Source: Thermoanaerobaculaceae bacterium (GTDB taxonomy: Bacteria > Acidobacteriota > Thermoanaerobaculia > Multivoradales > UBA5704). Taken from it: 64,000 nucleotides of DNA. The notes under the pieces were generated by a model. The model did no database searches. It saw nothing but the letters and a program-made list of their open reading frames with translations, and was not told where the DNA came from. Below, piece by piece: positions 24,222 to 54,301 of this stretch. The stretch spans positions 53,302 to 117,301 of the forward strand of contig CAWAUI010000003.1 of NCBI GenBank assembly GCA_963785165.1. Reading direction: 5' to 3'. A program made the position numbers and the translations under genes. The stretch's first letter is position 1. Each line of letters starts with the position of its first letter.

Positions 24222-25184
24222 ATGCCGGGCCTTGGCCGCATTCTCTTCTTCGGAACCCCTGATTTCGCCGTCCCCACCCTCGCAGCCTTGGTCGAGGCCG
24301 GGTGGGCGCCGGTGCGCGTGGTGACGCAGCCTTCGCGGCCGGTGGGCCGGGGGCGGGGGCTTCAGGACCCTCCCGTGGCGGCCTGGGCGCGCGCGCACGG
24401 CCTGGAGGTGACGCAGCCGGAGCGGGTGCGGCATCCGGACTTCCTGGCCGAGGCCGCGGCGCTGGCGCCGGACGTGGCCGTGGTGGTGGCGTTCGGCCAG
24501 ATCTTCCCGCGCGCGCTGCTCGATCTGCCGCGGCATGGCTGCGTCAACCTGCACGCCTCGCTGCTGCCGCGCTGGCGTGGCGCCGCGCCCATCCAGGCCG
24601 CCGTCGCCGCGGGGGAGGCGCGCACGGGGGTCGCGACGATGAGGATGGAGGAGGGGCTCGACACCGGGCCGATCCTGCTGGAGGAAGAGACCGCGATCGG
24701 GCCGGACGAGACGGCGGACGAGCTGTCGCGCCGCCTGGCCGAGTTGGGCGGCAAGCTGATGGTGCGGACCCTGCACGAGCTGGAAGCCGGCGGCCTCGTG
24801 CCCCGGCCGCAGGACGTGCCGAAGGCGCCACCTACGCGCCGCGCCTGACGCGCGAGAGCGGCCGGGTGGATTGGGCGCTGACGCGCTCGCGAGCTCTACG
24901 ACCGGCTGCGGGCCTATACGCCGTGGCCGGGGCTGTCGGCGGAGCTGCGGCGGCGAGCCGGTGAAGATCGTGTCGCGCCTCCGTTCTCCCGGAGGACGCC
25001 GGCACGCACCCGGCGCCGTGCCTGGCACCCTCCTGGGCCTGCGCGACGGGCGGCTCGCCGTGGTCTGCGGCGGGTGGCACCGTGCTGGGCCTGGCCGAGC
25101 TTCAGCGCCCGGGCAAGAGGCCCTCGCGCGCGGCCGACTTCGTCAACGGGGAACGGCTGCGGCGCGGGCGAGCGCTTCTCCTGA
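24222..25184 (+). CDS. fmt: Methionyl-tRNA formyltransferase; frameshifts after ~24.83 kb
   Basis: ILFFGTPDFAVPTLAAL...VVTQPSRPVGRGRGL...NLHASLLPRWRGAAPIQAAV...TGVATMRMEEGLDTGPIL. The C-terminal domain is spread over three frames (ATYAPRLTRESGRVDW; ...LAELQRPGKRPSRAADFVNGERL). Confidence 0.85.
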
Positions 25185-25199
25185 CGCGTACGAGAGAGA

Positions 25200-26616
25200 A
25201 TGTCCAGACGCCACTTCGAGCCTCCACCGACCCCGCAGACGGGGACCCCTCGCGGCCGCGCCCGGCGGCGCACGCCGCAGGACAACGTGCGCGTGGCCGC
25301 CGGCTGGGTGCTGGAGCGGACCCTGCAATCGCTCGCGCCCGCGGACTCCTTCCTGGACAGCGCTCTGGCGCCGCTTCGACGAGCGCGACCAGGGGCTCCT
25401 GCGCGAGCTGGTCATGGGCAGCCTGCGCTGGCTGCGCCGCATCGACTACGTCATCGCCGCGGCGAGCAGCCGGTCGCTTCGACGCAGATCGAGGCGCGCG
25501 CTCCACGCGCCGCTGCGCATCGCCACCTACCAGCTCCTGTTCCTCGACCGCGTGCCCGCCCACGCCGCCGTGCACGAGGCGGTGGAGCAGGCCCACCAGC
25601 TCACCCACCGCGGCGGCGCGAGCTTCGTCAACGGCGTGCTGCGCCGCATCGCGCGGGCGCCCCGGCTGGAAGACTGGCCGGTCGAGGACGCCGATCCCGG
25701 TGCGGCGGCTGGCGATCGAGAAGAGCCATCCGGACTTCCTGGTCGCCCGCTGGTCGAGCGCTTCGGCCAGGAGCGGACGCGTGGCCTGCTCGACGCCAAC
25801 AACCGCGCCAAGCCCATGCAGCTCCTGGCCTTCCGCGACCGCGGCGGGCGCGAGCTGCTGGCCGAGCGGCTGATCGACGAGGGGCTGGAGGTCGAGCCGG
25901 CGGCGCTCTCGCCCCTGGGGCTCATCGTGCGCCGGGGCAACCCGTTCGCCTCGGCGGCCTTCCAGCGCGGCGACTTCTACGTGCAGGACGAGGCGAGCCA
26001 GGCCGCGGCCCTGATCCCGCCGCCGCGCCCGGGCGAGACGGTGCTCGACGCCGCCGCGGCGCCGGGCGGCAAGAGCTTCGCCCTGCTCGCCCACGAGCCG
26101 GGCGTGCGCATCACCGCTCGCCGACGTGGCCCTCGTCCCGGCGCCAACGTGCTGCGCGAGCAACCTTCGCCGGCTGCGCCGCCATCTGCCCTCTGGTCGT
26201 GGCCGACGCGGGCGTGCCGCCCTTGCAAGCGGCCGTTCGACCGGGTGGTGCTCGACCTGCCCTGCACGGGCACGGGGACGCTGCGCCGCCATCCCGAGAT
26301 CAAGTGGCGGATCAGCGAGAGCGAGATCGGCCGCCTGTCGCGCCAGGCCCTGCGCCTGCTCGACGGCGACGGCGCCGCTGGTGGCGCCCGGCGGGCTGCT
26401 GGTGGCGATCACCTGCTCGCTCGAACGGGAGGAGAACGAGGACGTCATGACACGTTTTCTCGCTACCAGGCCGGACCTCTCGCCCCTGCCCCTGGAGGGG
26501 CTGCTGGAGAACCCCGCTGGCGGCCAGTGTCACGGGCCCCGGATCGTGGCGCGTGCTGACCGGCGGGGACCATGACGGATTCACCGTCAACGTGCTCGCG
26601 GAAAGCCCGGATCTAA
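25200..26616 (+). CDS. rsmB: 16S rRNA (cytosine-C5) methyltransferase RsmB/Sun; many frameshifts
   Basis: NusB-like N-terminus (RELVMGSLRWLRRIDYVI...YQLLFLDRVPAHAAVHEAVE). SAM motif VLDAAAAPGGKS. DLPCTGTGTLRRHPEIKW. ITCSLEREENE. The 3' end estimate assumes a stop at 26614-26616. Confidence 0.8.
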
Positions 26617-26720
26617 GCGGTTTCCGCGGGCCTGCCCGCCTTGACAGCGCCCCGCCGGTTGCCTTATCGTTTACGGCTGTCACTTTCGCTCAGGAAAAAC
26701 CACGGCAAGGAGGAGAGGAG

Positions 26721-27023
26721 ATGGCTGGTAAGGCAGACCTGGTCAATAGCATTGTGGACTCCGTGGAGGGCATTACCCGGCGGCAGGCCGTTGCGGCTTT
26801 CGAGGCAGTTTTCGGTGCGATCTCCAGTTCGCTCAAGGCCGGTGAGTCGGCCAAAGTCCCGGGTTTCGGCAGCTTCGCCATCTCCGAGCGGGGTGCCCGC
26901 AAGGGCCGCAACCCCGCCACGGGCGAGTCGATCACCATCAAGGCCAGCAAGAGCGTCCGCTTCAAGGCCGGCAAGGAGCTGAAGGAAGCCGTCAACACCA
27001 AGAAGCGGGGCAAGAAGGCTTAA
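26721..27023 (+). CDS. hup: HU/IHF-family DNA-binding protein
   Basis: RBS AAGGAGGAGAGGAG before the ATG. MAGKADLVNSIV...GFGSFAISERGARKGRNPATGESITIKASKSVRFKAGKELKEAV. Confidence 0.9.
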   Translation: MAGKADLVNSIVDSVEGITRRQAVAAFEAVFGAISSSLKAGESAKVPGFGSFAISERGARKGRNPATGESITIKASKSVRFKAGKELKEAVNTKKRGKKA

Positions 27024-27049
27024 GCGCAGCACCCGATCGCTCCAACCTG

Positions 27050-27086
27050 CCCCTCTCTCCGCGCCTTCCTCCGGCCGGGAGAGGGG
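27050..27086. terminator. Hairpin between convergent genes (possible bidirectional terminator; resembles half a REP unit)
   Basis: CCCCTCTC, a 21-nt loop, then GAGAGGGG. Located between the hup stop (27023) and the GT2 stop (27095). Confidence 0.4.
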
Positions 27087-27094
27087 GAGGCCGC

Positions 27095-27776
27095 CTACCG
27101 GACCTGCCGGTAGAGCCGCGCCAGCCGGTGCGGTGAAATCCCGAAAAAGATAGAGAATCCAGATCAGCCAGTTGATCGCCACCGTGCGCACGGCCCCTTG
27201 CTCCACGAAGCGGCGGGCGCCCGTGGTGACCGGGGACTCGATGATCGCCGCGCCGTGCCGAGGCGGCGCAGCCGCAGGGCGAAATCGAGATCCTCCAGGA
27301 TCGGCCAATCGCGATAGCCGCCCGAGTTTTTCGAACGTCTCGCGCGTGACGAACTGGGCCTGATCGCCCAGCGGCAAGCGGATCAGCCGTGTGCGCCAGT
27401 TGATCAGCCACGAGCCCAGGCGCTGCACGGGCCGGTCCGTGTCGAAACGCAGAAAGAAGGCCCCGCCCGGAGCGCCGTCCGCGATCGCCCCCCGCACCGC
27501 GTCGAGTCCGCCGGGCGGCAGCGTGGTGTCGGCATGGAGGAAGAGGAGGATGCCTGCGCCGTTGGCCGCCGCGGCGCCCCGGTTGAGCTGGCCGCCCCGG
27601 CCCGGCAGGCCCCACGACCACCCGGGCACCGAGCTCGCGCGCCACGGCCACCGTGCGCGTCGCCGCTGCCGCCGTCCGAGACCACCACCTCGTCCGCCAC
27701 CGCCAGCGTCGCCGGGCAGGGTGCGGCGCAGGGCGTCCTCCTCGTTGAGGGTGGGCACCACGATCGCCAGTCGCAT
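27095..27776 (-). CDS. Family-2 glycosyltransferase (small, TIGR04283-like); multiple frameshifts
   Basis: MRLAIVVPTLNEEDALRRTLP..., ADEVVVSDGGSGD (another frame), ILLFLHADTTLPPGGLDAVRGAI...RLPLGDQAQFVTRETFEKLG. The true C-terminus GISPHRLARLYRQVR-stop is recovered by a shift at the T-run near 27140. Confidence 0.7.
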
Positions 27777-27832
27777 GGGGCTCAAGATGGCTGAAATGCT
27801 AGCATGCAGCGTTCCCCGGAGAAGCAAATCCC

Positions 27833-28319
27833 ATGACAGCGCAAGGATCCTTCAGCCATCTCGACCCCCAGGGCACCGCCCACATGGTGGACGTGTCGGA
27901 AAAGCCCGTCACCCGCCGCGTGGCCGAGGCCTCGTGCCGCGTGTCTGCTCTCTGCCGAGACGCTGTCCCGCCTGGCCGATCTCCCCAAGGGGGACGCCTT
28001 CGCCGTCGCCCGGCTGGCGGGCATCCAGGGCGCCAAGCGCACCTCCGAGCTGATCCCGCTCGCCCACCAGATCCCCCTCGACCAGGTGGAGGTCGACATC
28101 CAGCCCACCGAGGGCCAGGACGGCGTCGAGATCCGCAGCCAGGTGGTGGTCACCGCGCGCACCGGCGCCGAGATGGAGGCGCTGCTCGCCTGCTCGACGG
28201 CGGCCCTCGCCCTCTACGACATGGTCAAGGCCATCGAGCGCGAGCGCCGTGATCACCGACCTGCGCCTGGAAGGCAAGAGCGGCGGCGCGTAGCAGGCGT
28301 GTTCCGGCGGGAGGGTTGA
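27833..28319 (+). CDS. moaC: Cyclic pyranopterin monophosphate synthase MoaC; frameshifted
   Basis: SHLDPQGTAHMVDVSEKPVTRR..., then after a frame change AKRTSELIPLAHQIPLDQVEVDI...VVVTARTGAEMEALLACSTAALALYDMVKAIER. Confidence 0.8.
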
Positions 28320-28324
28320 GGGGC

Positions 28325-29514
<1,190 letters not shown>

Positions 29515-29518
<4 letters not shown>

Positions 29519-29946
29519 AGGGGCCTCACCTCCTCCGCGTCGAAGACGCCCCGGCGGCCTTCGCTCCCTTGATCGAGGCCGCCCGCGCGCTGGGTCTGCG
29601 GATCGGTTGGCTGGAGCTTGGGGTTGCTGCGCCTGCCCCCCTCCCCGAATCCCTGGAAAGCGCCGCGGGCCTGGGCGTTTTGCGCGCCGTGTCGGTGGGA
29701 GAAGGACGGACGGTCGCCGTGAAACCGTTGCGCGGCCGGCCCGTCCTCAAAGATCTCCTGCGGGAACACTTCCAAGGCTGCACCCTGGTGCTCGTGCGGG
29801 GCGGGGGAGAGATTCCCGCTCTCGCCTTGTCACTCCTGGACGGCTCGTACCTCGTCACGCCCCCCGGGGCAGCGTCCCTGAGCTACGCGGTGGCGGATCT
29901 GGCTTTGGCTCTCCGCAAGCCACACCCCTGGGGCACCGGCCTGTAG
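29515..29946 (+). CDS. Hypothetical protein (143 aa)
   Basis: Open frame from a GTG overlapping the upstream stop (GTGA). No motif recognised. Confidence 0.4.
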
Positions 29947-29959
29947 ATAGAACCCCTTT

Positions 29960-32197
29960 CTATGGCACCCTTCGCCACTGGTTCGTCGTGCGGTTGAATT
30001 CCACCGTTACGCCGCCGTTGGTGTCGGCATTGCGCAGGTTGATGGGTACGAAGGCGTTGGCGGGGAAGAGGGACTGGAGGGCCGAGCCGCCGCGCAGGGT
30101 GACCCGGTTCGACTTGCGCACGAAGCTGGTCCAGCGGTGGCCGTCGATCGACACCTGGAGGCTCGGGTGGAAGTTGGAGCCCTGGATGACGATCACGAAC
30201 GGATTGTCCTGCCGGCGAACCAGCGTAACGGCGGGCGCGTCCTGGCTCCCCCCTCCTCCGCCTCCGCTGACATTGACCGTCACCATGCCCAGGTTGGAGT
30301 CGATGGCGCCGTCCCAGGCGGCGAAGGTGAAGGAGTCGGCTCCCGTGAAGCCCGGCTCGGGAACGTAGAGGGCGGTCCGGCCGGAGAGGCCGGCCGTGCC
30401 GTGGGCGGGCTGCGAGACCACCCGCAGCTCCAGGGTGTTGCCGTCCGCGTCGAAGGCGTCGAGGCTCACCGGGACGCCGGCTCCCGCGGGGGTCGAGGCC
30501 GTCGCGTTGCCCACCTGGGGCGGCTGATTGCGCGAGGCGCTCTCACTGTTGGGGCCGTTGTGGCAGGCATAGCAGCTCACCCGAAAGCCGCGCCAGAAGA
30601 ACCGGGTGCCGAACTCGGAGCGCACCGTCCGGTCCGCCTGGGCATAGGAAAGCACGGTGCCGCGGGAGTCCGTGCCATGGCACGCGCGGCAGGCGGAGGC
30701 ACCCCCGTGCTCGGCGGCGTCGCCGTGGCCGTTCACCCAGTCTTGACCGAGCGGGTGCAGGCCGTGGGGGCCGCCGCTCACCGTACGGGGGGAGCCGCCG
30801 TGGCAAGTGGAGCACTCCGAGAGAGGTCCCGCGTGCCCTTGAAGATCGCTGTTCTGGAGGTTGTCGTTGAGGTGCGACGCCGGGTACTCGGCGTGCGTGG
30901 AGCCGTGGCAGGCCTCACAGGCGAGGCCGCCATGGCCGTAGGAGAACCGGAACAGGGAATGGCCGGGGCCGGGGACGTTCGGATTGGTGGCGAACGTCGA
31001 GTCCGCGGCGGGCCGGGGCTGACCGCCTTCGAAGGCCGAGGTGAAGCGGATCTGACCTCGGTTGGTGACGGCCGTACCCGTGTGGCAGCTCTGGCACGAG
31101 GGCTCGTCCAGCCAGCCCTGGCGGTCGGGCGAGCCGACGGCGCTCATGGAACCGTGGCAGCTCTGGCACTGCATCGCCAAGGTTCCGTCCGGGTTGACGG
31201 CGCTGCCCATGGCCCCCCGCAGGCAGCGGGTGGTCGAGCCCGGGTGGCAGCTGTAGCAGGCCGCGCGGTTGGTGGAGGCGTCGAGAGTCTGGCCGTTGCG
31301 CGGGTCGGTCACCCTCGCGTGCAGAGTGTGGATGGTGGCCGTGAGCGCCGAAATGCCGGCGATTCCCGTCCCCGGCAGGGCGTTGGAGGCGTGGCAGCGG
31401 GCACAGAGTATGGGCCTGCCGCCGGTGGCCGTGAGATACAGCCCCCGAGCGTCATAGCCCGCGCGGGCGAGGGCGTCGCGGAAGAGGGGATTCGTCCCCT
31501 GCCGGTCGTCGTGCAACCGGAGGACGTTGAGCCGGTAATCGCGTTCCGGGTTGTTGTCGTTCACCCAGCCCGCGGCTGGCTTCGCGGCGTTGCCGGAGCC
31601 GGAGGCGTGGCAGGCGGTGCAGCTCATCTCGTCCGAGACCGGAAGCACGATCCGCGTCTCGGCCAGCAAGGCACCGCCGCGGTCGCGGGCCACGAGCCGC
31701 ATCAGGGGATAGGGATTCTTGTGGCCGGCGTCATCGTAGGGAGTGATGGGGACGCCTTCCGCGACCCACCAGTCCTGGGAGGCGTCGTAGGACATGGCCC
31801 GTGGTGCGTTCCCCGCGCCGGGCATGGAGAGGCCGGTCAGGCCCGTGTCCGGCGCCGGCGAGGCGCCATAGAGGGCCGATACGAACTGCCAGAAGTTGGT
31901 CTTGCCGAGGGCGGTGCTGTTGATCGATCCCGACGGATCGCGCATCGCCTCGTAGGTGACGAAGATGCCCGCCGGGTCCTGCACGAGGCCGCGCGAGGAG
32001 TCGACGAGCTGGGCGTGGAACGTGTTGTAGGGAGGCAGGATGGAAAACACCGAGTAGTCACTGTCCATGCAGTGCATCCCGAGGTTGTTCCATCCGACGA
32101 GAGTCCAGCCTCCGCCGGCCGCGGCGGACGGGGTGACCGGCAAGGTGGCGGCGAGGAGGACCGGAACGAGGAAGAGGACCTTGAGCAGCTTGCGCAT
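29960..32197 (-). CDS. Secreted nonaheme c-type cytochrome with C-terminal Ig/cadherin-like and IPT-like domains (745 aa)
   Basis: Signal peptide MRKLLKVLFLVPVLLAATL. Nine CxxCH motifs: CTACH, CARCH, CYSCH, CQSCH (x2), CEACH, CSTCH, CRACH, CYACH. C-terminus LRVVSQPAHGTAGLSGRTALYVPEPGFTGADSFTFAAWDG, then a beta-rich tail. Intact ORF. Confidence 0.85.
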   Translation of the reverse strand: MRKLLKVLFLVPVLLAATLPVTPSAAAGGGWTLVGWNNLGMHCMDSDYSVFSILPPYNTFHAQLVDSSRGLVQDPAGIFVTYEAMRDPSGSINSTALGKTNFWQFVSALYGASPAPDTGLTGLSMPGAGNAPRAMSYDASQDWWVAEGVPITPYDDAGHKNPYPLMRLVARDRGGALLAETRIVLPVSDEMSCTACHASGSGNAAKPAAGWVNDNNPERDYRLNVLRLHDDRQGTNPLFRDALARAGYDARGLYLTATGGRPILCARCHASNALPGTGIAGISALTATIHTLHARVTDPRNGQTLDASTNRAACYSCHPGSTTRCLRGAMGSAVNPDGTLAMQCQSCHGSMSAVGSPDRQGWLDEPSCQSCHTGTAVTNRGQIRFTSAFEGGQPRPAADSTFATNPNVPGPGHSLFRFSYGHGGLACEACHGSTHAEYPASHLNDNLQNSDLQGHAGPLSECSTCHGGSPRTVSGGPHGLHPLGQDWVNGHGDAAEHGGASACRACHGTDSRGTVLSYAQADRTVRSEFGTRFFWRGFRVSCYACHNGPNSESASRNQPPQVGNATASTPAGAGVPVSLDAFDADGNTLELRVVSQPAHGTAGLSGRTALYVPEPGFTGADSFTFAAWDGAIDSNLGMVTVNVSGGGGGGSQDAPAVTLVRRQDNPFVIVIQGSNFHPSLQVSIDGHRWTSFVRKSNRVTLRGGSALQSLFPANAFVPINLRNADTNGGVTVEFNRTTNQWRRVP

Positions 32198-32374
32198 GAA
32201 TGCACCTCCGATTTCTGAGGAGCCTCTCCGCTTTGCGCGAGGGGGTCCCGTGTGCCCTCCACGGGAAAAGAAAGAATCAGGACACCAACCCAGCCCACCT
32301 TAGATCCCTACTCCCGGACGCCGGGCCACCTGGGAGGGTGGACGGCTCCGCTCTCCGGGGTAGGAAGGCGCCGG

Positions 32375-32404
32375 TTGGGGGGGTAGGTATGGGTTAGGTA
32401 GAAT
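32375..32404 (+). promoter_or_regulatory. Candidate promoter giving a near-leaderless hen1 transcript
   Basis: TTGGGG, an 18-nt spacer, then TAGAAT, ending 10 nt before the ATG at 32415. No Shine-Dalgarno sequence in between. Confidence 0.3.
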
Positions 32405-32414
32405 CCCGGTCCCC

Positions 32415-33833
32415 ATGCTCCTCACTCTCCGCACCACCCACGTTCCAGCCACGGACCTCGGCCATCTCCTGCACAAGCATCCGGAGCGGCTGCAGACCTT
32501 CGAGCTGCCGTTCGGGCAGGCGCACGTGTTCTACCCCGAGGTCTCCGAAGAGGCCTGCACGGCGGTGCTCTTGCTGGATGTGGATCCCGTGGGCCTGGTG
32601 CGGGGCGAAGGGGCGGCGATGGATCAGTACGTCAACGACCGGCCCTACGTGGCCTCGTCGTTCCTCTCGGTCGCCATCGCCCGGGTGCTCGGGCAGGCGT
32701 TGGGGGGCCGGAAGCCAGAGCGGCAGGAGCTGGCGGAGACGGCGATTCCCCTGGAGGCCCGGCTGGCCGTGCTCCCGTGCCGTGGCGGCGAGGGCGTGCT
32801 GCGCAGGCTCTTCGAGCCTCTCGGCTACGCGGTGACGGCTGAGGGGTATCCCCTCGATCCCAATTTTCCGGAATGGGGAGCGAGCCGCTACTTCACGGTG
32901 ACCCTCAAGGCCGTTTGCCGCCTGGGTGATCTGCTTTCGCACCTCTACGTGCTCGTGCCCGTGCTCGACGACGGCAAGCATTATTGGGTAGGCGATTGGG
33001 TAGGCGATTGGGTGGGCGATGCCGAGATCGAGAAGCTCCTGCGTCACGGTGAAGGCTGGCTCGCCGAGCACCCCGAGCGGGATTTCATCACCCGGCGCTA
33101 CCTCCGCCATCAGCGCGGCCTGATGCGGCAGGCCATGGCCCGGTTGACCGAGGACGAAGAGCCCGAAGAGGAACGGAAGGCCGAGGCCCGGGACGCCGAG
33201 GAGGCCTCGCTGGAGCGCCCTCTGCGCCTTCACGACCAGCGTCTCGATCTCGTGGCGGAGGTCCTGAAAGAGAGCGGTGCCCGGCGGGTCCTCGACCTCG
33301 GCTGTGGCGACGGCAAGCTGCTGAAGCGCCTGCTGGCCGAGCCCCAATACACGGAGATCGTGGGGATGGACGTGAGCTCCCGCGCGCTCGAGGTAGCGGG
33401 GGACCGGCTGAGCCTGGACCGCCTGCCGGCCCGACAGCGGGAGAAGATCCACCTCCGCCAAGGCTCCCTGATGTACCGCGACCGCCGGCTCGCCGGCTAC
33501 GACGCGGCGGCCGTGGTGGAGGTCGTCGAGCACCTCGATCCCCCTCGCCTCGCGGCCTTCGAGCGGAACCTCTTCGAATTCGCGCGGCCCGGCACGGTCG
33601 TTCTCACCACGCCCAACCGCGAGTACAACGCCCGCTGGCCCGCCCTGCCGGCCGGCCGCTTCCGCCACCGCGACCACCGTTTCGAATGGACCCGGGCTGA
33701 ATTCCACGCCTGGGCCGAAGGGATCGCCAACCGTTTCGGTTACGCGGTGCGCTTCGGCCCGGTGGGGGAGGAGGACCCGGAGGTGGGGCCGCCTTCGCAG
33801 ATGGGGATTTTCAGCCGGAGCGCCACGCCGTGA
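32415..33833 (+). CDS. hen1: Bacterial Hen1, RNA 3'-terminal ribose 2'-O-methyltransferase
   Basis: N-terminal domain MLLTLRTTHVPATDLGHLLHKHPERLQTFELPFGQAHVFYPE. MTase motif I RVLDLGCGDGKLL. VVEVVEHLDP. Metal/His cluster FRHRDHRFEWTRAEF. Intact 472 aa. Confidence 0.85.
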   Translation: MLLTLRTTHVPATDLGHLLHKHPERLQTFELPFGQAHVFYPEVSEEACTAVLLLDVDPVGLVRGEGAAMDQYVNDRPYVASSFLSVAIARVLGQALGGRKPERQELAETAIPLEARLAVLPCRGGEGVLRRLFEPLGYAVTAEGYPLDPNFPEWGASRYFTVTLKAVCRLGDLLSHLYVLVPVLDDGKHYWVGDWVGDWVGDAEIEKLLRHGEGWLAEHPERDFITRRYLRHQRGLMRQAMARLTEDEEPEEERKAEARDAEEASLERPLRLHDQRLDLVAEVLKESGARRVLDLGCGDGKLLKRLLAEPQYTEIVGMDVSSRALEVAGDRLSLDRLPARQREKIHLRQGSLMYRDRRLAGYDAAAVVEVVEHLDPPRLAAFERNLFEFARPGTVVLTTPNREYNARWPALPAGRFRHRDHRFEWTRAEFHAWAEGIANRFGYAVRFGPVGEEDPEVGPPSQMGIFSRSATP

Positions 33834-34765
33834 CGGACCGCGGCCTCGGTGTGCCCGAGTGGATCCTGCCGGTTGGAACCCACGTAGTAATTCGTACCGA
33901 AGTACGAAACGGGCGAGGCGAAACCCTCTGCCCGGCCGGAGCCGTAGGGAAAATCGTCAGAGCGCCTGTGGATGGAACCCACGCCTATCGTGTCCTTTTC
34001 CCGGAAGGCAGGGAGCTTTCCTTGACCCGGCAGAATCTCAGCGTCCGCAAACAAGTCCAGCAAGAGGATCTCGCGAAGGCCAGCCCGCCGGATTTGGAAA
34101 GTGAGCTGTACGGGCGGGTGATCTATCGATGTATTGTCGGCTCCGTGGCTTATGGTCTGGCCGGAGAAGGATCGGATATCGACCGGCGCGGTTTCTATCT
34201 TCCTCCGGCGGATCTGCACTGGTCGCTATTTGACGTTCCGGAACAGATCGAAAACCGTGAGACCGAGGAGTGTTACTGGGAAATCCGGAAGTTCCTGACG
34301 ATGGCTCTCAAGGCCAATCCAAACATCCTGGAGTGCCTCTACACCCCGATCGTGGAGCTCAGCACGCCATTGGCGGACGAGCTCATCGCGCACCGGTCGG
34401 TTTTTCTTTCCAAGATGATCTATCAGACCTACAACGGTTATGTGATGTCTCAGTTCAAGCGGCTCGAACAGGACGTCCGCGTCACGGGAGCGCCGCGCTG
34501 GAAACATGCCATGCACCTGATCCGGCTTTTGCTCGCGGGGATCACGGCCCTGCGCGAAGGGATCATTCCGGTACAGGTGGCGGAACATCGGGACCGCTTG
34601 CTGGCCATCAAGAGAGGAGAGGTTCCCTGGGAGGAATTGGACGCCTGGAGGCTGGACCTCCATGTGCAGTTCGAGCGGGCTTTCGTAGCCACGTCCCTTC
34701 CGGACCGGCCGGACTATGAGTGGGCCAACCGTTTTCTGATCGAAGCCCGCAGGAGTGCGGTTTGA
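33830..34765 (+). CDS. Pol-beta-superfamily nucleotidyltransferase (PF10127/RlaP-like) with extra N-terminal ~90-aa domain
   Basis: GSVAYGLAGEGSDIDRRGFYLPP...YWEIRKFLTMALKANPNILECLYTP...QTYNGYVMSQFKRL. GTGA overlap with the hen1 stop. Confidence 0.75.
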   Translation: MTDRGLGVPEWILPVGTHVVIRTEVRNGRGETLCPAGAVGKIVRAPVDGTHAYRVLFPEGRELSLTRQNLSVRKQVQQEDLAKASPPDLESELYGRVIYRCIVGSVAYGLAGEGSDIDRRGFYLPPADLHWSLFDVPEQIENRETEECYWEIRKFLTMALKANPNILECLYTPIVELSTPLADELIAHRSVFLSKMIYQTYNGYVMSQFKRLEQDVRVTGAPRWKHAMHLIRLLLAGITALREGIIPVQVAEHRDRLLAIKRGEVPWEELDAWRLDLHVQFERAFVATSLPDRPDYEWANRFLIEARRSAV

Positions 34766-35550
34766 AGGGCCACGGTGAGAGCTGGACCGGCGATCCGAGG
34801 CTGGCTGCCGAGGTGGCGGAACATCCCTATCCCGTGCTGTTCGCCACCCTGAGCGGTGCCCATCTCTATGGCTTTCCATCGCCGGATTCGGACTTCGACC
34901 TGCGGGGTGTTCATGTCCTGCCCGTGGATGAGTGTCTGAGTCTTGGCGCTGCGGCTGAAACGGTTTCGCTCTCCCACGTGCGCGATGGCATGGAAGTGGA
35001 TCTGGTCACTCATGACGTGCGGAAATTCTTTACGCTTCTACAGCGCAATAACGGGTACGTCCTGGAGCAGCTCTATTCGCCTCTGGTGATCCGGACCACC
35101 TGGGCCCACGCGGAGCTCAAGGAGATCGCTCGCGGCTGCATCACCCGCGGATGCTTGAGGCACTATCGAGGATTCGCTCGCAATCAGTGGGAAATGTTCG
35201 CGCGGCAGTCTCCGCGCCGGGTCAAGACGCTGTTGTACGTCTATCGCGTGCTTCTCTCGGGCATCCACCTTTTGCGGACGGGAGAGGTCAACGCGCATCT
35301 CCTGGGGTGTAATGAGGAGCTTCTGCTTCCTTATCTGGAAGATCTCGTCGCTGAGAAAGCGGGAGGAGCGGAGAAGGGAGCGCTGGAGGCCTCGGACTTC
35401 GCCTTTCATGAGAAGGAGGTCGAACGGCTGAGGGGAGAGCTGGAAGAGGCCGCCACGGTGAGCCCGCTGCCGGAAGAGTCTGCGGCCGGTCAGGCGCTGA
35501 ACGATCTGCTGCTTCGGGTCCGGCGAGAATGGTCGGGAGGGAACTGGTGA
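34720..35550 (+). CDS. Second Pol-beta-superfamily nucleotidyltransferase (PF10127/RlaP-like paralogue)
   Basis: LSGAHLYGFPSPDSDFDLRGVHVLP...VRKFFTLLQRNNGYVLEQLYSP...HYRGFARNQW. The likely real start is the TTG at 34762, overlapping the upstream stop (TTGA). Confidence 0.75.
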   Translation: MGQPFSDRSPQECGLKGHGESWTGDPRLAAEVAEHPYPVLFATLSGAHLYGFPSPDSDFDLRGVHVLPVDECLSLGAAAETVSLSHVRDGMEVDLVTHDVRKFFTLLQRNNGYVLEQLYSPLVIRTTWAHAELKEIARGCITRGCLRHYRGFARNQWEMFARQSPRRVKTLLYVYRVLLSGIHLLRTGEVNAHLLGCNEELLLPYLEDLVAEKAGGAEKGALEASDFAFHEKEVERLRGELEEAATVSPLPEESAAGQALNDLLLRVRREWSGGNW

Positions 35551-38104
35551 AGATCGCCCTCCCCAACCTCGCGCTCGTCGTCCTCATCGGCCCTTCCGGC
35601 GCCGGCAAGTCCACCTTCGCCCGGCGGCACTTCAAGCCCACGGAGATCCTCACGTCCGATCATTGCCGGGCGCTGGTCTCGGACGACGAGAACGATCAGA
35701 CGGCCACGGCGGATGCGTTCGCGGTCCTCCACTTCATCGGCGGCCGGCGCCTCGCGCGGGGTCTCCTGACGGTGGTCGACGCCACCAGCGTTCAGCCGGA
35801 GGCCCGCAAGCCTCTCGTGGAGCTGGCCCGCGCGCATTACGTGTTGCCGGTGGCGATCGTTCTCGATCCTCCGGAGGACGTGCTGGTGGAACGGAACCGG
35901 ACCCGGCCGGACCGCAACTTCGGGTCTCACGTCCTGCGCAACCAGCGGAGTCAGCTCCGGCGGTCGCTCTCCGGTCTCCAGAAGGAGGGCTTTCGCCACG
36001 TCTGGGTCCTGCGCACACCGGAGGAAGCGGAGGCGGTTGAGATCGAGCGGCGGCCTCTCTGGCCCGACCGGCGGGACGACCGGGGTCCATTCGATCTCAT
36101 CGGCGACGTCCACGGCTGCGGGGACGAGTTCGAAGAGCTGCTGGCCACGCTCGGCTATGGGACGGACGCGTCTGGGACCTTCCGTCATCCCGAAGGCCGC
36201 AAGGCCGTCTTCCTGGGCGACTTGGTGGACCGGGGCCCACGGGTGATGGATGTGCTGCGGATCGCCATGGGGATGGTGGAGGCCGGCTCGGCCTTGTGCG
36301 TGCCGGGCAATCACGACGTCAAGCTCGTGCGGTGGCTCCGGGGAAAGAACGTCAAGGTCGCCCATGGCCTGGAGTGCTCCATCGAGCAGATCGAGCGCGA
36401 GCCGCCGGAGTTTCGCGAACGGGTAGAGAAGTTCCTCGACGGCCTGATCAGCCACTACGTGTTGGATGGCGGTCGGCTCGTGGTCGCTCACGCCGGCATG
36501 AAGGCGGAGATGCAGGGGCGTGGCTCCGGCCAGGTGCGCGAGTTTGCCCTCTACGGCGAGACCACCGGGGAGACCGACGAGTTCGGCCTGCCCGTCCGCT
36601 TCGACTGGGCCGCCGAATACCGGGGCACGGCGCCGCGTGGTCTACGGCCACACGCCGGTCGCCGAGCCGAGCTGGCTCAACCGGACGATCAACATCGACA
36701 CCGGGTGCGTCTTCGGCGGCCGGCTCACGGCCCTGCGCTATCCGGAGCGGGAGCTCGTCTCCGTCCCCGCCCGGCGCGGACCTACTGCGGGCACGCCCAG
36801 GCCGTTCCTGGCCGCCTGTCTCCGCGCTGACGGCCCAGCAGGAGCAGGACGACGTGCTCGACCTCGAGGACGTGCTCGGCAAGCGGATCATCCACACCCG
36901 GCTGCGCAGCAACGTCACGATTCGCGAGGAGAACGCCGCCGCGGCCTTGGAGGTCATGAGCCGCTTCGCGGCCGATCCCAAGTGGCTCATCTATCTGCCG
37001 CCCACCATGTCGCCGTCCGAGACCAGCCGCCGTCCGGACCTGCTGGAGCACCCGGCGGAGGCCTTCGCCTATTACCGGCGCCGAGGGCGTCGACCGGGTG
37101 ATCTGCGAAGAGAAGCACATGGGCTCGCGGGCGGTCGTGGTCGTCTGCCGGGACGAGGAGGCGGCCCGCCAACGTTTCGGAGTGGCTGGGCGAAGGGATC
37201 GGCATCTGCTACACACGGACGGGCCGGCGCTTCTTCGACGATGCCGCGCCTGGAGCAACGACTCCTGGACCGGGTGCGGCGACGCCTTCGACGAGCGCCG
37301 GCCTCTGGGACGCGTCTCGACACCGACTGGCTCTGCCTCGACTGCGAGCTGATGCCCTGGTCGGCCAAGGCCCAGGATCTCCTGCGCGAGCAGTACGCCG
37401 CCGTGGGCGCCGCCGCGCGGACGGCCCTCCGCCAAGGCCATCGCCCGCCTGGCCGAGGCGGGCGCCGCAGGGTATCGACGTCGGCAGCCTGCTCGCGCCG
37501 CTACCGCCGGCGCTACGACGTCGCCGGCCGATTCGTGGACGCCTACCGGCGCTATTGCTGGCCGGTCGCGTCGCTCGACGACCTGCACCTCGCGCCCGTT
37601 CCACCTGCTGGCCTCGGAGGGCGCCGTCCACGTGGACAAGGACCACGCCTGGCACATGGAGACGCTGGCCGAGGCTTGCCGGGCCGATCCGGACCTGCTC
37701 TGTCGCCACGCCCTGGCGGACCGTCGACCTGGACGACGCCGGCAGTCGAGGCCGAGGCGATCGCCTGGTGGGAGGAGCTGACCGCGAGCAGGCGGCGAGG
37801 GGATGGTGGTCAAGCCGCTCGACTTCGTCGCCCGGGCCGCCGGGGCCTCACCCAGCCGGCGGTCAAGTGCCGGGGCCGGGAGTACCTGCGGATCATCTAC
37901 GGCCCCGAGTACACGCTGCCGGAGAACCTGGAGCGCCTGCGATCGCGGGGCCTGGCCCGCAAGCGTTCGCTGGCCCTGCGGGAATTCGCCCTCGGAATCG
38001 AGGCGCTGGAGCGCTTCGTCCGCGGCGAGCCGCTGCGCCGCGTCCACGAGTGCGTCTTCGGCGTCCTGGCGCTGGAGAGCGAGCCGGTGGACCCGCGTCT
38101 GTAA
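35529..38104 (+). CDS. pnkp: Polynucleotide kinase-phosphatase/ligase Pnkp; 5' 1.1 kb intact, at least 8 frame changes after ~36.6 kb
   Basis: Kinase P-loop [14 protein letters not shown]. Phosphoesterase GDVHGC...[10 protein letters not shown]...VPGNHD. Ligase lysine motif [11 protein letters not shown]-terminus [26 protein letters not shown]...[16 protein letters not shown]. An alternative GTG start at 35547 overlaps the upstream stop. Confidence 0.85.
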
Positions 38105-38134
38105 AGGGTCGCCCCTACAAGAGGGCACCGCATG

Positions 38135-38514
38135 CTAGTGTAGTGCGTCGCAATTAAGGGCTCTTTTGCCGCCTCTTTGGAAGAGGTAGACCTTGACCTG
38201 TGGCCCTGGAGTCTCAGCCAAAGGCAAAGCCGACAAAACGTTGCCGCCCTGAAGGCAAGGCTCTGGGCGCCCCGTAGGGGTGCGGGCATTAAGCCTGGCG
38301 TTTCAACGCCAGGAAAGAGCCCATCCCCCATCTCCCAAAGCCCTGTAAGGGCGACGGCAGCCCGGTTCAAGCCTCCGCCCCGATGGGGCTTGGGGAGGAG
38401 AGGGAGACTCCTCTCCTGGCGTTGAAACGCCAGGCTTAATGCCCGCACCCCTACGGGGCGCCACGATGCCGACCCTGGCCCATAAGAGTCGGTCTGTTTG
38501 ACGCACTACACTAG
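38135..38514. mobile_element. MITE-like nested palindromic element (380 bp, no ORF)
   Basis: Perfect 15-bp terminal inverted repeats: ctagtgtagtgcgtc (38135-38149) and gacgcactacactag (38500-38514). Perfect 49-bp internal inverted repeat (38266-38314 / 38414-38462). Each internal arm holds its own hairpin, cctggcg-tttcaa-cgccagg. Confidence 0.6.
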
Positions 38515-38550
38515 GCTCCCGGCGAATTCTGAAGAAGTCCTCGTAGGAGC

Positions 38551-39888
38551 ATGGGAATGAAGAGGGGTTGCCTTCTCGCGTTGCTGCAACTCGGGGCTCT
38601 GATCGGCCTCTACTACCTGATCTTCCATGGCCGGCTCATTCCGCCGGCCGACCTGATCGGCGCTCTTGGGGGCGGGTTTGGTCTCCTGCTGGTCATCGGC
38701 GCTTTCCGCAACGCCTGGTCGGCGCGGAAAGGCCGCGCCCTGCTCGACCTTGCCTTTACCGGAGCCCCCTTGGAGGACGGCCGGCGGATCGCGGTCGTCG
38801 GCCCCATCCTGGCTCTGGGCGCGCCGATCGCGGCGCCCTTCAGCGATTCTCCCTGCGTGGGCTGCTCCTGGGACGTTTCCCATAAGAACACGAGCCCGGC
38901 TTCCAACGCCAAGAATCAAGACGTCAAGGATTTCTCGGGCTTCGTCATGACGCCCGGCGTTGTTCAGGCCCCTACCGGCAATGTCCGTATCCTGGGCTTT
39001 CCCGTGCTTGAGGGCTTCCCGAAGGAAGTCAGGCGCGGCGACGCGGCGTTCAAGCGGGCACGGGCCTACCTGGAATCCGCGTCCTTCGAGACGATCGGTG
39101 TCTCCAACGCCTTCTCCGAGATCGAGGATCTGATTCTGGATGGGGATGGCCGGATTCGCAAAGACTGGCGGATGGCCGGCGAGGAATTCCGGCTGGATCC
39201 CAACCTGCACACCCTCAACGAGCAGGTCGTCAAGGATGGCCAGATGGTCTGTGCTTTCGGTCTCTATTCGGCCGAGAAAGCCGCACTCGTCTCGGGCTAT
39301 GGCCGGGGAGGCGTGGGGATCAAGCTGATACAGGGGAGCGGTGAGTCGGCCAGGAACATCCTCTCCACGAAATTCTGGCAATACCTCATGGCAGGCGTAA
39401 TTCTCTTCCTCGTCACGCACTACCTACTGATGCATCTGGTTCTCCTCCACAAGGTGCCGAGCGCGGCGGAGCTGGAAGAGGCCCTTGGAGCTGTCCTGTT
39501 TCAGGCTGTCAAGGACGAAGACATGGCAGCCGTCACGGCCGCGCTGGACACCGGCTTCGATCCCGACGCGAGGGATGAGCAGGGCAATACGCCCTTGATG
39601 GTGGCGGAAGACCCTCGCGTAGCCCGCCGTCTGATCAGTGCCGGCGCCGATGTCAACGCCCGAAATGCAAACGGCTCGACGCCGCTCATCGAGGCGGCGA
39701 AGTACTGCCACCTCGAAGTAGTCCGTCTGCTACTGCAGTCCGGTGCCGATGTGAACGCCAGGGACGAAAAAGCTGAGAACGTCACGGCTCTCGATTGGGC
39801 CCATATCTGGGGTCCCGACGATGAGAATTACGAAGAGGTGGTCAAGGTCTTGCGCGAAGCAGGCGGCGTCGAGGCCCGGTCTCGCTGA
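38551..39888 (+). CDS. Membrane protein: 2 TM + ~230-aa domain (GIDE-like?) + TM + 3 ankyrin repeats (paralogue 1)
   Basis: TMs LLALLQLGALIGLYYLIF, LIGALGGGFGLLLVIGAF and FWQYLMAGVILFLVTHYLLMHLVLL. ANK repeats GNTPLMVAEDPRVARRLISAGADVNARNANGSTPLIEAAKYCHLEVVRLLLQSGADVNARD. Intact ORF. Confidence 0.75.
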   Translation: MGMKRGCLLALLQLGALIGLYYLIFHGRLIPPADLIGALGGGFGLLLVIGAFRNAWSARKGRALLDLAFTGAPLEDGRRIAVVGPILALGAPIAAPFSDSPCVGCSWDVSHKNTSPASNAKNQDVKDFSGFVMTPGVVQAPTGNVRILGFPVLEGFPKEVRRGDAAFKRARAYLESASFETIGVSNAFSEIEDLILDGDGRIRKDWRMAGEEFRLDPNLHTLNEQVVKDGQMVCAFGLYSAEKAALVSGYGRGGVGIKLIQGSGESARNILSTKFWQYLMAGVILFLVTHYLLMHLVLLHKVPSAAELEEALGAVLFQAVKDEDMAAVTAALDTGFDPDARDEQGNTPLMVAEDPRVARRLISAGADVNARNANGSTPLIEAAKYCHLEVVRLLLQSGADVNARDEKAENVTALDWAHIWGPDDENYEEVVKVLREAGGVEARSR

Positions 39889-39905: not shown

Positions 39906-41234
39906 ATGAAAAAGTTTTTCCTTTTCTGGTTGCTGCTGCTCGTGGTTCTGGCAGGCCTCTACTACCTGGCGCTCCGCGGCCAGGTCAGCTCGCCGGCCGA
40001 CTGGCTGGGCGCTCTCGGAGGCGGGGCCGCCCTCACGCTCGTGACCGGCGCCTTCCACAACGCCTGGTCGGCGCGCAAGGGGCGCGTCCTGCTCGACCGA
40101 ACCCTCACCGGAGCCCCTTACGAGGACGGCAAGCAGACCGCGGCCGTCGGCCCCATTCTGGCCCTGGGCTCGCCGGTGTACGCCCCCTTTAGCGGGGAGC
40201 CCTGCGTTCTCTGCAGTTGGAGAATCACCCACGAGGTCCCGATTGACGAGCACGAGCCCGAGGAAGGCAAAAAGCATATCGAAGATTTTTCGGGTTTCAT
40301 CATGGCGCCCTGCGTGGTTCAGGACCCCGCGGGCAACGTCCGCCTCCTGGACTTGCCCACGATCGCGGGGTTCCCGGCGGAGGTTCGGCGCGGCAAGGGG
40401 GATTTCCAGCGGGCTCGGGAGTACCTGCAATCGGCCTCCTTTGAAAAAGCGAGCCTCGTCAAGCTCATCTCCGAGGAGCTGGCCGCGGACGAGGCGGGCT
40501 GCTTCCGCAAGGACTGGCGGGAGGCCGGCGACGATTTCCGGCTGGATCCCAAGGACCACACTCTCACGGAATATGTCGTCCGGGATGACGAGACCGTCTG
40601 CGCCATCGGCATCTATTCGGCCCAAAGACAGGGTCTCGTCTCCGGCAAGATCCGGGAAAGCGCACGGATCAAGCTGATCCAGGGAGACAGCGCAGCGGCC
40701 CGAAAAAACCTTGCAAAGACCTTTTGGAAGTATTCCGTGGGGGGGGGCCTGTTTCTCATTTTCACCCATGCCATGCTGTTCCACTACGCCGATCGCAACA
40801 AGGTGCAGGCCCCGGTCGAGTCGAAAGAGGCCCGGGATTACGCCTTGTTTCAGGCCGTCGGGAAAGGGGACCTGGCGGCCGTCACCGCGGCGCTCGACGC
40901 CGGGCTCGATCCCAACGCGCGGGATGAGGGGAACTACACACCCTTGATGGTGGTGGACGACCCGCGGGTCGCCCGCCGGCTCCTCCTGGCCGGCGCCGAC
41001 GTCAACGTCCGCGGCCTGGACGGCCACACGCCGCTCATTGAGGCCGCGAGGAGTTGCAAGCTCGAAGTGGTCCGGCTGCTCCTCCAGGCCGGTGCCGCCG
41101 TCCAGGCCCGCGACCCCGCGTCGAACCGCACCGCCCTGGAGTGGACTGAGGACTGCTACCCTCAGGGCGACGAGAGGCATGAAGAAGTGGTGAAGGCCCT
41201 GCGTGAGGCCGGGGCCAGGGAAAAGTCTCGCTGA
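39906..41234 (+). CDS. Membrane protein: 2 TM + GIDE-like? domain + TM + ankyrin repeats (paralogue 2)
   Basis: Colinear with 38551-39888: FHNAWSARKGRVLLD, APFSGEPCVLCSW, DFSGFIMAPCVVQDPAGNVRLL, FRLDPKDHTL, ANK C-terminus. Lies 17 bp downstream of paralogue 1. Confidence 0.75.
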   Translation: MKKFFLFWLLLLVVLAGLYYLALRGQVSSPADWLGALGGGAALTLVTGAFHNAWSARKGRVLLDRTLTGAPYEDGKQTAAVGPILALGSPVYAPFSGEPCVLCSWRITHEVPIDEHEPEEGKKHIEDFSGFIMAPCVVQDPAGNVRLLDLPTIAGFPAEVRRGKGDFQRAREYLQSASFEKASLVKLISEELAADEAGCFRKDWREAGDDFRLDPKDHTLTEYVVRDDETVCAIGIYSAQRQGLVSGKIRESARIKLIQGDSAAARKNLAKTFWKYSVGGGLFLIFTHAMLFHYADRNKVQAPVESKEARDYALFQAVGKGDLAAVTAALDAGLDPNARDEGNYTPLMVVDDPRVARRLLLAGADVNVRGLDGHTPLIEAARSCKLEVVRLLLQAGAAVQARDPASNRTALEWTEDCYPQGDERHEEVVKALREAGAREKSR

Positions 41235-48961: not shown

Positions 48962-50159
48962 GACAGCTCCTCCTGTTTCTTTCGAAGCCCGGCGGGGAAG
49001 AGGCGGCGCCAGGCGAGCGCGATCCCCGTCCACACCAGCACCGCCACCCCGGCGGACACCACCCCCGCCACGGCTTGGCCCGTCACACCGCCCGCCTCAC
49101 CCGTGTGAATCCACCGCGACCACGTCCGCAGCCGCCGGCCGGTACTCTGGCTCTCGTACGGCTCCCACTTTTCAATCGCACCCGTGGCGCGCTCCAGGGT
49201 GAGCTGCGCCCGCAGATCCGGCCGGCCCCCGCTGCCCACCGGGCGATCGAAAACGTCACCGGCGCCTCGGGCGAATCCGGCAGGCGCAGCGTGATGCTCC
49301 GCCACCCGGCACCTGCCGCTCGGCCACTGCCCACAGGGCGTTCAGCCCGTCGAGCACGATCTTTTCCTCGCGCTTTTCCCCAGGGCGTTCCCCGCCCCGA
49401 TTGCCTCCAGGCGGGCCTTGACGGGCCGGCGGCGGCTCCTCGCCCGCCACTCGGTACAGCAGATCGCTCGCCCAGGATACGACATGACGACGCCCGAGAC
49501 GACGATGAGCAAGAGCGGCGCCAGCGACCAGAGACCGATGACGTGGTGCCAGTTGAAATCGCGCGCCTTGCCCGGCAGGCCGCGCCGGAACCACACGACG
49601 CCTCGCAGCTACGGCCATTTCCACCGCCGCGGCCACCATAGGTAGAAGCCGGTGCCCACCAGGAACAGGAACGCGAGGTTGGAGGCGCCGGTGATCGCAC
49701 GGCCGGTGGCTCGCCACTCGCAGCTCGCACCCAGCCACCGGTGCCAGTCGGTGACGGCGTGGAAGAACCTCGCGCGTTCGGGGAGCCTTCGCCCAGAAGC
49801 TTGCCGGTGTATGGATTTACGTGGAGCGTTTGTCCGCCCCAGGCTCATCGACGCGGGCGCCGTCGGATCGGATTGGAGGGTGACCCGGGAGGGGGCGCGT
49901 CGGGGTCCCGAAGCTCCGCCGATCAGGGTTTCGACGGCAGGAGCGCCGTCGGGAGCCGGAGCTCCCTTCGTGGCAGGGAGCGACCGGTCGGCCCACGCCG
50001 TGATCTGCCGCTCGAACGTCAGCAGCACGCCCGTCACCGACATGACCAGGATGACGACGCCCGCAGTTACGCCCGCGGCCAGGTGGAGCCAGAAAATGGC
50101 GGTGCGAAAGGGGCGGGACGAGCGGCCGGCTGGACGTTCCGGTCAGGCAAGGCCGTCAT
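48958..50159 (-). CDS. PepSY-associated TM helix protein (PiuB-like); several frameshifts
   Basis: FRTAIFWLHLAAGVTAGVVILVMSVTGVLLTFERQ; FHAVTDWHRWLG; DFNWHHVIGLWSLAPLLLIVVSGVVMSYP; WSRWIHTGEAGGVTGQAVAGVVSAGVAVLVWTG. The ATG inferred at 50157-50159 needs one frame correction. Confidence 0.7.
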
Positions 50160-50729: not shown

Positions 50730-50746
50730 AGGCAGTCTCGTAAAGG

Positions 50747-50910: not shown

Positions 50911-50917
50911 GCGCGGC

Positions 50918-51253: not shown

Positions 51254-51259
51254 CTGACC

Positions 51260-54298: not shown

Positions 54299-54301
54299 GG
54301 C

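Follow-up and report, generated by a model that had tools for sequence, protein, structure and literature searches.

A Pnkp/Hen1 RNA-repair operon with two RlaP-family nucleotidyltransferase genes in a Thermoanaerobaculaceae bacterium

Four overlapping genes and their families

The stretch of DNA analysed here (the window) comprises 64,000 nucleotides (nt) from a Thermoanaerobaculaceae bacterium of the phylum Acidobacteriota (GenBank assembly GCA_963785165.1, contig CAWAUI010000003.1, forward-strand positions 53,302 to 117,301). It carries a bacterial RNA-repair operon: hen1, rlaP-long, rlaP-short, and pnkp, in that order and all on the + strand (Table 1). The two middle genes encode paralogous nucleotidyltransferases (NTases), 28% identical to each other, of the RlaP family. 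All three junctions are start/stop overlaps of 4 nt (GTGA at 33830, TTGA at 34762, and GTGA at 35547), placing hen1 and pnkp in a single operon on one strand. The closest relative, L001, is a Logan contig with 87% nucleotide identity to the window. It has the identical four-gene order and, in its gene calls, identical 4-nt overlaps; its Pnkp is intact at 846 amino acids (aa).

Table 1. Features of the operon in the window, and cargo intervals at other hen1/pnkp or RlaP loci
Feature	Location	Strand	Length or product	Remarks
candidate promoter	32375..32404	+		-35-like TTGGGG 32375-32380, 18-nt spacer, -10-like TAGAAT 32399-32404
hen1	32415..33833	+	472 aa	Pfam Hen1_L and methyltransferase domains; TIGR04074 equivalog
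rlaP-long (NTase1)	33830..34765	+	311 aa	RlaP PF10127; GTG start
rlaP-short (NTase2)	34762..35550	+	262 aa	RlaP PF10127; TTG start
pnkp	35547..38104	+	polynucleotide kinase / 2',3'-phosphatase / RNA ligase	GTG start; frameshifted as given
indel stretch of pnkp	36632..37835	+		18 inserted bases, 1 missing relative to L001 (blastn, MAFFT)
Thg1-like plus kinase interval	L057:9401-10610, L061:2634-3835, L065:9934-10705, L072:9307-10634
other slot or pair-adjacent cargo	L055:9230-10843, L035:9359-10534, L070:1684-2847, L054:9673-11388

A preliminary description of the locus had proposed these four genes as one translationally coupled operon. Its gene families are borne out by profile searches (Pfam, TIGR04074, PF10127, and TIGR04075), in which Hen1_L, PF10127, and PNKP_ligase were all matched; the motif strings it quoted for the two NTases are present as GSVAYGLAGEGSDIDRRG and LSGAHLYGFPSPDSDFDLRG; and the three overlaps lie at the positions it gave. 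Gene order and overlaps stand, but pnkp as a single open reading frame (ORF) does not. The further proposal, that the overlaps indicate stoichiometric co-expression, fares poorly: overlaps vary by lineage, and the gap between the long and short RlaP genes ranges from -30 to +170 nt and more.

Hen1 matches the Pnkp-activating Hen1_L region over residues 1-244 (Pfam, 6.1e-108), with C-terminal 2'-O-methyltransferase domains after it. Its score against TIGR04074 (NCBIfam) is 702 bits, with a cutoff of 340, which makes it an equivalog; an exact-protein look-up returned no identical entry. Judged by equivalog-level homology, Hen1 and Pnkp of the window would heal, methylate, and seal broken RNA. 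(Within hen1, positions 32983-33020 hold a 12-nt tandem repeat, ATTGGGTAGGCG in 3.2 copies, which translates as (GDWV)3 and exceeds its L001 counterpart by 24 nt, with the frame kept.)

Both NTases are RlaP by sequence. The short protein matches PF10127 with 170.1 bits (9.3e-50), and the long protein with 140.2 bits (1.2e-40) over residues 92-304, the Pfam cutoff being 23 in both cases. As proposed, one NTase, the long protein, carries an extra N-terminal domain of about 90 aa. Both families are large: with 8000 candidates scored per search, homologues with E <= 1e-5 number at least 7902 for the long and at least 8000 for the short protein. The source gene call for rlaP-short is the identical 262 aa (P0271), whereas that for rlaP-long (P0019) has 247 aa, taking an internal start that drops the first 64 codons (33830-34022) and with them most of the conserved N-terminal barrel. 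The 311-aa version is the better reading, because homologues both cover and conserve the first 90 residues: among the best 120 of the at least 7902 homologues, all have 300-336 aa and cover the N-terminal domain, except the window's own 247-aa gene call, and homologues of 305-315 aa back 311 aa.

The Pol-beta signature, consisting of G-[SG], DxD, and a third carboxylate, is present in both proteins. In the long RlaP, residues G104, S105, D116, D118, and E147/E151 are invariant across 42 sequences, as are residues of the N-terminal domain. In a joint alignment of 85 sequences from both families, the short RlaP shows invariant G32, D44, and D46 and a nearly invariant E78, which together with D80 was noted as the conserved downstream carboxylate. 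Neither protein resembles a dead paralogue; because the catalytic carboxylates are kept, both are probably active.

Structure models extend this comparison unevenly. The AlphaFold2 (AF2) model of the short RlaP has a predicted local distance difference test score (pLDDT) of 93.5 and a predicted template-modelling score (pTM) of 0.91; strands within residues 25-85 and then helices as far as 256 form an N-terminal mixed beta/alpha NTase domain and a C-terminal helical domain. A Foldseek search with it found no close solved relative: its best fold neighbour is the anti-phage NTase HalB (9dbh; E 1e-5, template-modelling score (TM) 0.42-0.48, 11-14% identity), and the fold resemblance to kanamycin NTase is remote (TM about 0.35, 11-16% identity). 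Aminoglycoside NTases (ANT(4'), AadA), raised in the preliminary description as an unrelated family to which the two proteins might belong, were rejected: neither the Pfam nor the NCBIfam search returned an ANT family, and fold TM is 0.3-0.4.

For the long RlaP, the helical domain was modelled, and the NTase core has low confidence (pLDDT below 50 at residues 76-131), which limits fold comparison to the N-terminal domain. There a small beta-barrel spans residues 12-72 (pLDDT 75-87). Weak Foldseek matches to YorP, Tudor, and SH3 folds (best E 6.5e-3) hint that this domain is a small SH3/Tudor-like barrel. Neither RlaP, nor a profile, had a significant match among PDB sequences; the non-significant profile matches were to a Tudor domain and ribosomal protein uL2. 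Because the barrel is kept in RlaP pairs that stand apart from hen1 and pnkp (see below), it is not specific to docking on Pnkp/Hen1.

Frameshifts in pnkp

The pnkp span of 2558 nt is no multiple of three, so that pnkp as given cannot be one ORF. The frame opened at 35547, which encodes the kinase and the larger part of the phosphatase, keeps the Pnkp register only as far as about residue 362 and closes at 36830; what remains of the phosphatase, together with the ligase domain, is distributed among all three frames. Accordingly, Pfam places AAA_33 and Metallophos in frame 0 and PNKP_ligase in another frame. All three domains (kinase, 2',3'-phosphatase, and ligase) are thus represented, and the P-loop, GDLVDRGP, GNHD, and KHMGS motifs are seen in translation.

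The intact pnkp of the preliminary description is contradicted by 18 insertions and one deletion relative to L001. The inserted bases lie at 36632, 36775-36777, 36814, 37079, 37191, 37243, 37278, 37292, 37312, 37431, 37467, 37497, 37598, 37705, 37746, and 37789; one base is missing at 37835. Removing these differences yields a corrected Pnkp of 846 aa with no stops. It is 88% identical to L001 Pnkp at the amino acid level in the affected part and 91% upstream; divergence at the three codon positions is 0.076/0.064/0.237 in the affected part and 0.083/0.036/0.26 upstream. The third-position bias, and with it the mark of purifying selection, is therefore intact. Against TIGR04075 (cutoff 750), the ORF as it stands scores 603.7 bits over positions 1-367 of 851, whereas the corrected read-through scores 1435.9 bits over positions 1-851, above L001 Pnkp itself. 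All the indels but one are +1 insertions, and just one insertion extends a homopolymer; 10 of the 15 isolated insertions are a G between two Cs or, complementarily, a C between two Gs.

Other parts of the window carry similar irregularities. The rsmB gene (24871-26559), namZ (28522-29946), and a GT2 gene have partial Pfam profile matches only. At 53673-55019 on the - strand, a truncated SDR gene is fused in frame to an RHH domain, and a molybdopterin-binding subunit is broken up among three ORFs between 56.1 and 58.8 kb, also on the - strand. Over 24.4-30 kb and 50-64 kb, the phase of GC content at third codon positions switches every 150-400 nt; in clean genes it runs uninterrupted for more than 1 kb. 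This patchy frameshift noise means that gene content at 24400-30000 and 50000-64000 is not trustworthy frame by frame, and the lesson for the window is that its assembly carries patchy indel errors.

Given a stop-free corrected Pnkp that bears the mark of selection, together with the fragmented genes elsewhere, the pnkp frameshifts are very probably patchy assembly or consensus errors. The alternative is a true pseudogene in a decaying cassette, with hen1 and the two RlaPs alone functional. In favour of decay, about 16 frameshifting events are restricted to pnkp within the cassette, and in alignments with L001 the gaps in hen1, the two rlaP genes, and the ankyrin genes downstream are all compensated or in frame, leaving no net frameshift. 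Decay would nevertheless have to have proceeded without the substitutions that go with it, through events nearly all of the same +1 kind, mostly in C[G]C or G[C]G contexts and with one homopolymer extension; conserved genes elsewhere in the window are fragmented in like manner, and split Pnkp matches also occur in long-read metagenome-assembled genomes (MAGs). A pseudogene is accordingly improbable. (In the long-read MAGs concerned, the MFD assemblies L027, L031, L038, L075, and L078, tblastn matches to Pnkp come in abutting or overlapping pieces, frameshift-like as in the window.) For experiments, the L001 orthologue or the insertion-corrected reading is the version to use.

Recurrence, cargo, and surroundings of the operon

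Two surveys address how often the arrangement recurs. The first covered 80 hen1 loci in species-representative genomes, selected as those that matched a diverse Hen1 alignment best and annotated by tblastn with Hen1, both RlaPs, and L001 Pnkp as queries. RlaP is present in nine of the 80, which belong to the Acidobacteriota, Planctomycetota, and Verrucomicrobiota; it is absent from 71, most of which have hen1 followed directly by pnkp. Five of the nine have the pair between hen1 and pnkp (L015, L029, L054, L060, and L062; Acidobacteriota and Planctomycetota). Elsewhere the pair follows pnkp (L083), the long RlaP occurs alone (L008), a contig end cuts the locus (L033), or RlaP genes or fragments flank hen1/pnkp (L040, a Verrucomicrobiota MAG). 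In the Acidobacteriota MAG L029 (9412-11419), the N-terminal and NTase domains of the long RlaP lie about 1.1 kb apart with a 371-aa ORF between them, possibly through insertion of a mobile element.

The reverse survey found 80 metagenome loci with a long-RlaP alignment, of which 54 had assessable neighbourhoods. A short RlaP lies near the long one in 49 of the 54, downstream in 47 (usually at 6-50 nt) and upstream in two. Two more loci have pnkp directly downstream and no short RlaP; the remaining three lack a short RlaP over at least 1.2 kb. Nineteen long-RlaP loci have wide flanks, defined as at least 1.5 kb upstream and at least 4 kb downstream: nine contain hen1 and/or pnkp, and ten contain neither. 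Many metagenome contigs, among them L127, L142, L148, L153, L154, L160, and L161, repeat the order hen1-long-short-pnkp, and the pair follows pnkp in L095-L097. The stand-alone pairs L003-L007 have no repair gene within 7 kb, as judged by gene calls and Pfam.

The conserved unit is thus the long-plus-short RlaP pair, and its link to Pnkp/Hen1 is real, crosses phyla, and is facultative. RlaP adjoins an RNA ligase gene, pnkp, in the window, L001, L015, L060, L062, L127, L142, L148, and others. This revises the preliminary description in two respects. Rather than a duplication local to the Pnkp/Hen1 unit, the pair is an autonomous module that is widespread and is found also without hen1 and pnkp. 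Moreover, the neighbourhood linkage anticipated there does recur in three phyla, but 71 of 80 hen1/pnkp loci do without the pair.

Other genes occupy the same slot. Between hen1 and pnkp, cyanobacterial operons encode a Thg1-like nucleotidyltransferase (Thg1 plus Thg1C) together with a small P-loop kinase (AAA_33), as assigned by a Pfam run on L057 and by ORF sequence similarity in L061, L065, and L072 (Table 1). The Thg1 family adds nucleotides to 5' ends. As in the window, a nucleotide-restoring enzyme sits in the equivalent operon slot, although it differs from RlaP in fold and polarity (5' versus 3' addition). The Thg1-like cargo fits a general accessory role for the slot, that of restoring missing nucleotides. 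Further cargo in the slot or next to the pair includes an ApeA-type HEPN protein, a Shedu SduA_C nuclease, an AAA_15/AAA_21 ATPase, and a radical SAM protein. The hen1/pnkp operon appears to stand in a conflict or defence context. (An AAA_15/21 gene lies just upstream of hen1 in L002.)

Transcription of hen1 may begin close to its start codon. The preliminary description had proposed a promoter, TTGGGG-18-TAGAAT, giving a nearly leaderless hen1 mRNA. The sequence is present, ending 10 nt upstream of the hen1 ATG (TAGAAT-CCCGGTCCCC-ATG), but it fails the criteria of a sigma-70 scan, which reported no promoter over 32000-38700, because TTGGGG matches three of six positions. No Shine-Dalgarno sequence is visible upstream of hen1. 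At the equivalent site, L002 has TAAAAT-CCCGCCCCC-ATG, and L154 and L142 have TATAAT 7-8 nt before the hen1 ATG. In 25 of 94 hen1 loci, a TANNNT ends 4-12 nt before the start codon; the start-proximal bin contains about 2.4 times as many TANNNT as background bins do. For some of the loci, hen1 mRNA could plausibly be leaderless or nearly so, with the sequence in the window as a candidate promoter.

Directly 3' of pnkp lie two paralogues, about 55% identical, with C-terminal ankyrin repeats (38551-39888 and 39906-41234). They were considered as members of the cassette and rejected: of all the fetched loci, none but the window and L001 has them (L031 gives a single weak, partial match), and so they fall outside the recurrent cassette. 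Upstream of hen1 and divergent from it, a 745-aa ORF (29960-32197, - strand) has a signal-peptide-like N-terminus and at least nine CxxCH motifs (CTACH, CARCH, CYSCH, CQSCH twice, CEACH, CSTCH, CRACH, and CYACH); it looks like a secreted multihaem cytochrome. A tRNA-Pro(TGG) called by ARAGORN at 51713-51810 on the - strand is a probable false positive, being 98 nt long and without an Rfam tRNA match even at E <= 1; the site is GC-rich, apparently coding DNA.

A proposed repair pathway and its precedents

RlaP owes its name and definition to linkage with RNA ligases of diverse kinds, and restoration of lost nucleotides before ligation was its predicted role (Burroughs & Aravind 2016, PMC5062991, as cited in later work). 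The step suggested in the preliminary description, restoration of 3' ends, is the one so predicted. Its accompanying statement, that a role for RlaP had only been predicted, has been overtaken by a December 2025 preprint from Carruthers, Fatma and Huang on RlaPs from RtcB operons (bioRxiv 10.64898/2025.12.29.696909). In vitro, PfRlaP and PaRlaP extend RNA by one or two nucleoside monophosphates (NMPs) if it ends in a 3'-OH, but not if it ends in a 3'-phosphate. Activity is highest with Mn2+, the 5' half of a mimic of cleaved tRNA is the preferred substrate, and the enzymes increase the aminoacylation of a repaired tRNA from which one nucleotide had been lost (same preprint). The authors point out that the 3'-OH product suits 5'-phosphate ligases, and that RlaP occurs also in operons of repair systems with such ligases.

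The Pnkp/Hen1 half of the operon has equally clear precedents. The two-protein system is established for Clostridium thermocellum and Anabaena (PMC3675462, PMC3902929). Broken ends bearing 2',3'-cyclic phosphate and 5'-OH are first healed by the phosphatase and kinase activities of Pnkp; the 3'-terminal nucleoside is then methylated on its 2'-OH by Hen1, and the ligase, activated by Hen1, joins the ends.

These activities suggest a pathway for the window. A ribotoxin would cut a tRNA or rRNA loop to leave 2',3'-cyclic phosphate and 5'-OH ends, which the Pnkp phosphatase and kinase would heal to 3'-OH and 5'-phosphate. Where the toxin had also removed one or two nucleotides, the RlaPs would re-add them to the 3'-OH, a step that we infer here. 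The ribose at the new 3' terminus would then be 2'-O-methylated by Hen1, and the break sealed by Pnkp ligase in its Hen1-activated form. The RlaP step is placed, by analogy, between Pnkp dephosphorylation and Hen1 methylation and sealing because RlaP needs a 3'-OH. The two RlaPs may act as a heteromer, in sequence, or on different substrates, and the N-terminal barrel of the long one would presumably help to bind RNA or a partner protein.

The favoured reading, which we hold to be likely, is therefore a Pnkp/Hen1 break-repair operon with an accessory RlaP module that works in this way, its pnkp frameshifts being errors. Several observations weigh against it. RlaP-bearing loci are a minority state of Pnkp/Hen1 operons (nine of 80), and the ten of 19 wide-flank loci without hen1 or pnkp mark the tie as facultative. 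The slot takes unrelated cargo, so that position alone is weak evidence of joint function. L002 and L008, both from close Thermoanaerobaculaceae, have hen1, long RlaP, and pnkp without a short RlaP, which also argues against an obligate heterodimer. The fold assignment of the N-terminal domain is weak (best E 6.5e-3), and RlaP activity is known from RtcB-operon enzymes only, so that a role beside Pnkp would follow by analogy. Finally, a search for sequencing runs that could verify the artefact reading turned up only unrelated soil metagenomes, sharing 6-7% of 31-mers.

One elaboration of the favoured reading makes the RlaPs a dedicated heteromer with two active sites, in which the barrel recognises damaged tRNA or docks on Pnkp/Hen1 and successive or different nucleotides are added before Hen1 methylation. 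This remains a tentative proposal, on balance doubtful. If it were true, the operon would encode a four-protein machine able to reverse the action of RloC and other "cut-and-trim" ribotoxins, a task beyond two-protein Pnkp/Hen1. A looser association would make the pair an independent RNA 3'-end module in a permissive slot, serving any ligase, or tailing or maintenance alone, and not cooperating specifically with Pnkp/Hen1. The stand-alone pairs L003-L007, the ten wide-flank loci devoid of hen1 and pnkp, the many unrelated genes held by the slot in other lineages, and the pairs that follow pnkp (L083, L095-L097) all suit such a module. The nine of 19 loci with hen1 and/or pnkp are, however, far above random-neighbour expectation; strand and order are conserved and spacing is tight in several phyla; 4-nt overlaps lie on both sides of the pair in the window and L001; and the RlaP family is itself defined by linkage to RNA ligases. 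Full independence is on these grounds rather unlikely.

Still further from the favoured reading, the NTases could be conflict effectors or signal synthases: a toxin that modifies tRNA 3' ends together with its partner, or a maker of short oligonucleotides. The best fold neighbour of the short RlaP, HalB, is indeed an anti-phage oligodeoxyadenylate synthase; defence genes (ApeA HEPN, Shedu, AAA_15/21) occur in or near hen1/pnkp operons; and the stand-alone two-gene layout resembles that of toxin-antitoxin systems. That match is nevertheless remote (TM 0.4-0.5, 11-14% identity), and by sequence both proteins belong to RlaP, a family in which the enzymes characterised so far transfer no more than one or two NMPs to RNA 3'-OH ends and help repaired tRNA to be aminoacylated. 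Moreover, both partners keep their catalytic residues, unlike a typical toxin-antitoxin pair, which leaves this explanation very hard to credit.

Compared with known systems, the window operon is a further instance of a recurrent, largely anticipated arrangement. As far as found, the long-plus-short pairing, the N-terminal barrel, and Pnkp-linked RlaPs are apparently uncharacterised, though the pair may already be noted in the 2016 paper or the preprint supplement. A Pnkp-linked RlaP pair is a good experimental lead, if one unsurprising to the specialist.

Another paralogous pair of Pol-beta NTases, from a different family than RlaP, is that of the split CC-adding and A-adding tRNA nucleotidyltransferases. 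Like these, the two RlaPs could act in sequence to rebuild a short 3' stretch of RNA; nothing in the window points to a division of labour by nucleotide between them.

The Pnkp/Hen1 systems of Clostridium thermocellum and Anabaena variabilis resemble the window in their TIGR04074 and TIGR04075 equivalogs and in having hen1 followed by pnkp on one strand; they lack the two RlaP genes in between, and the window pnkp is frameshifted. The Pnkp1-Rnl-Hen1 complex (Nat Commun 2015, PMC4411300) is also an expanded Hen1-based repair system, with functions distributed over more than two proteins. There, however, the ligase is a protein of its own; in the window, all three domains stay together in Pnkp, and what the extra genes contribute is, putatively, nucleotide addition.

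The RlaPs of Pseudomonas fluorescens and P. aeruginosa (rtcB-rlaP-rtcA) share with those of the window the PF10127 family, the catalytic carboxylates, and an RNA-repair operon. PfRlaP, whose crystal structure was compared by its description, has an NTase domain and a C-terminal helical domain like the short RlaP. The Pseudomonas protein is encoded by a single gene and partnered by RtcB; the window has a long and a short RlaP, an extra N-terminal domain on the long one, and Pnkp as partner. This difference in partner matters for the chemistry. RtcB needs a 3'-phosphate, creating a mismatch with the 3'-OH product of RlaP that the preprint authors leave unresolved. Pnkp seals 3'-OH and 5'-phosphate ends, so that no mismatch arises, and the Pnkp-linked pair offers the cleaner system in which to test nucleotide fill-in during RNA repair.

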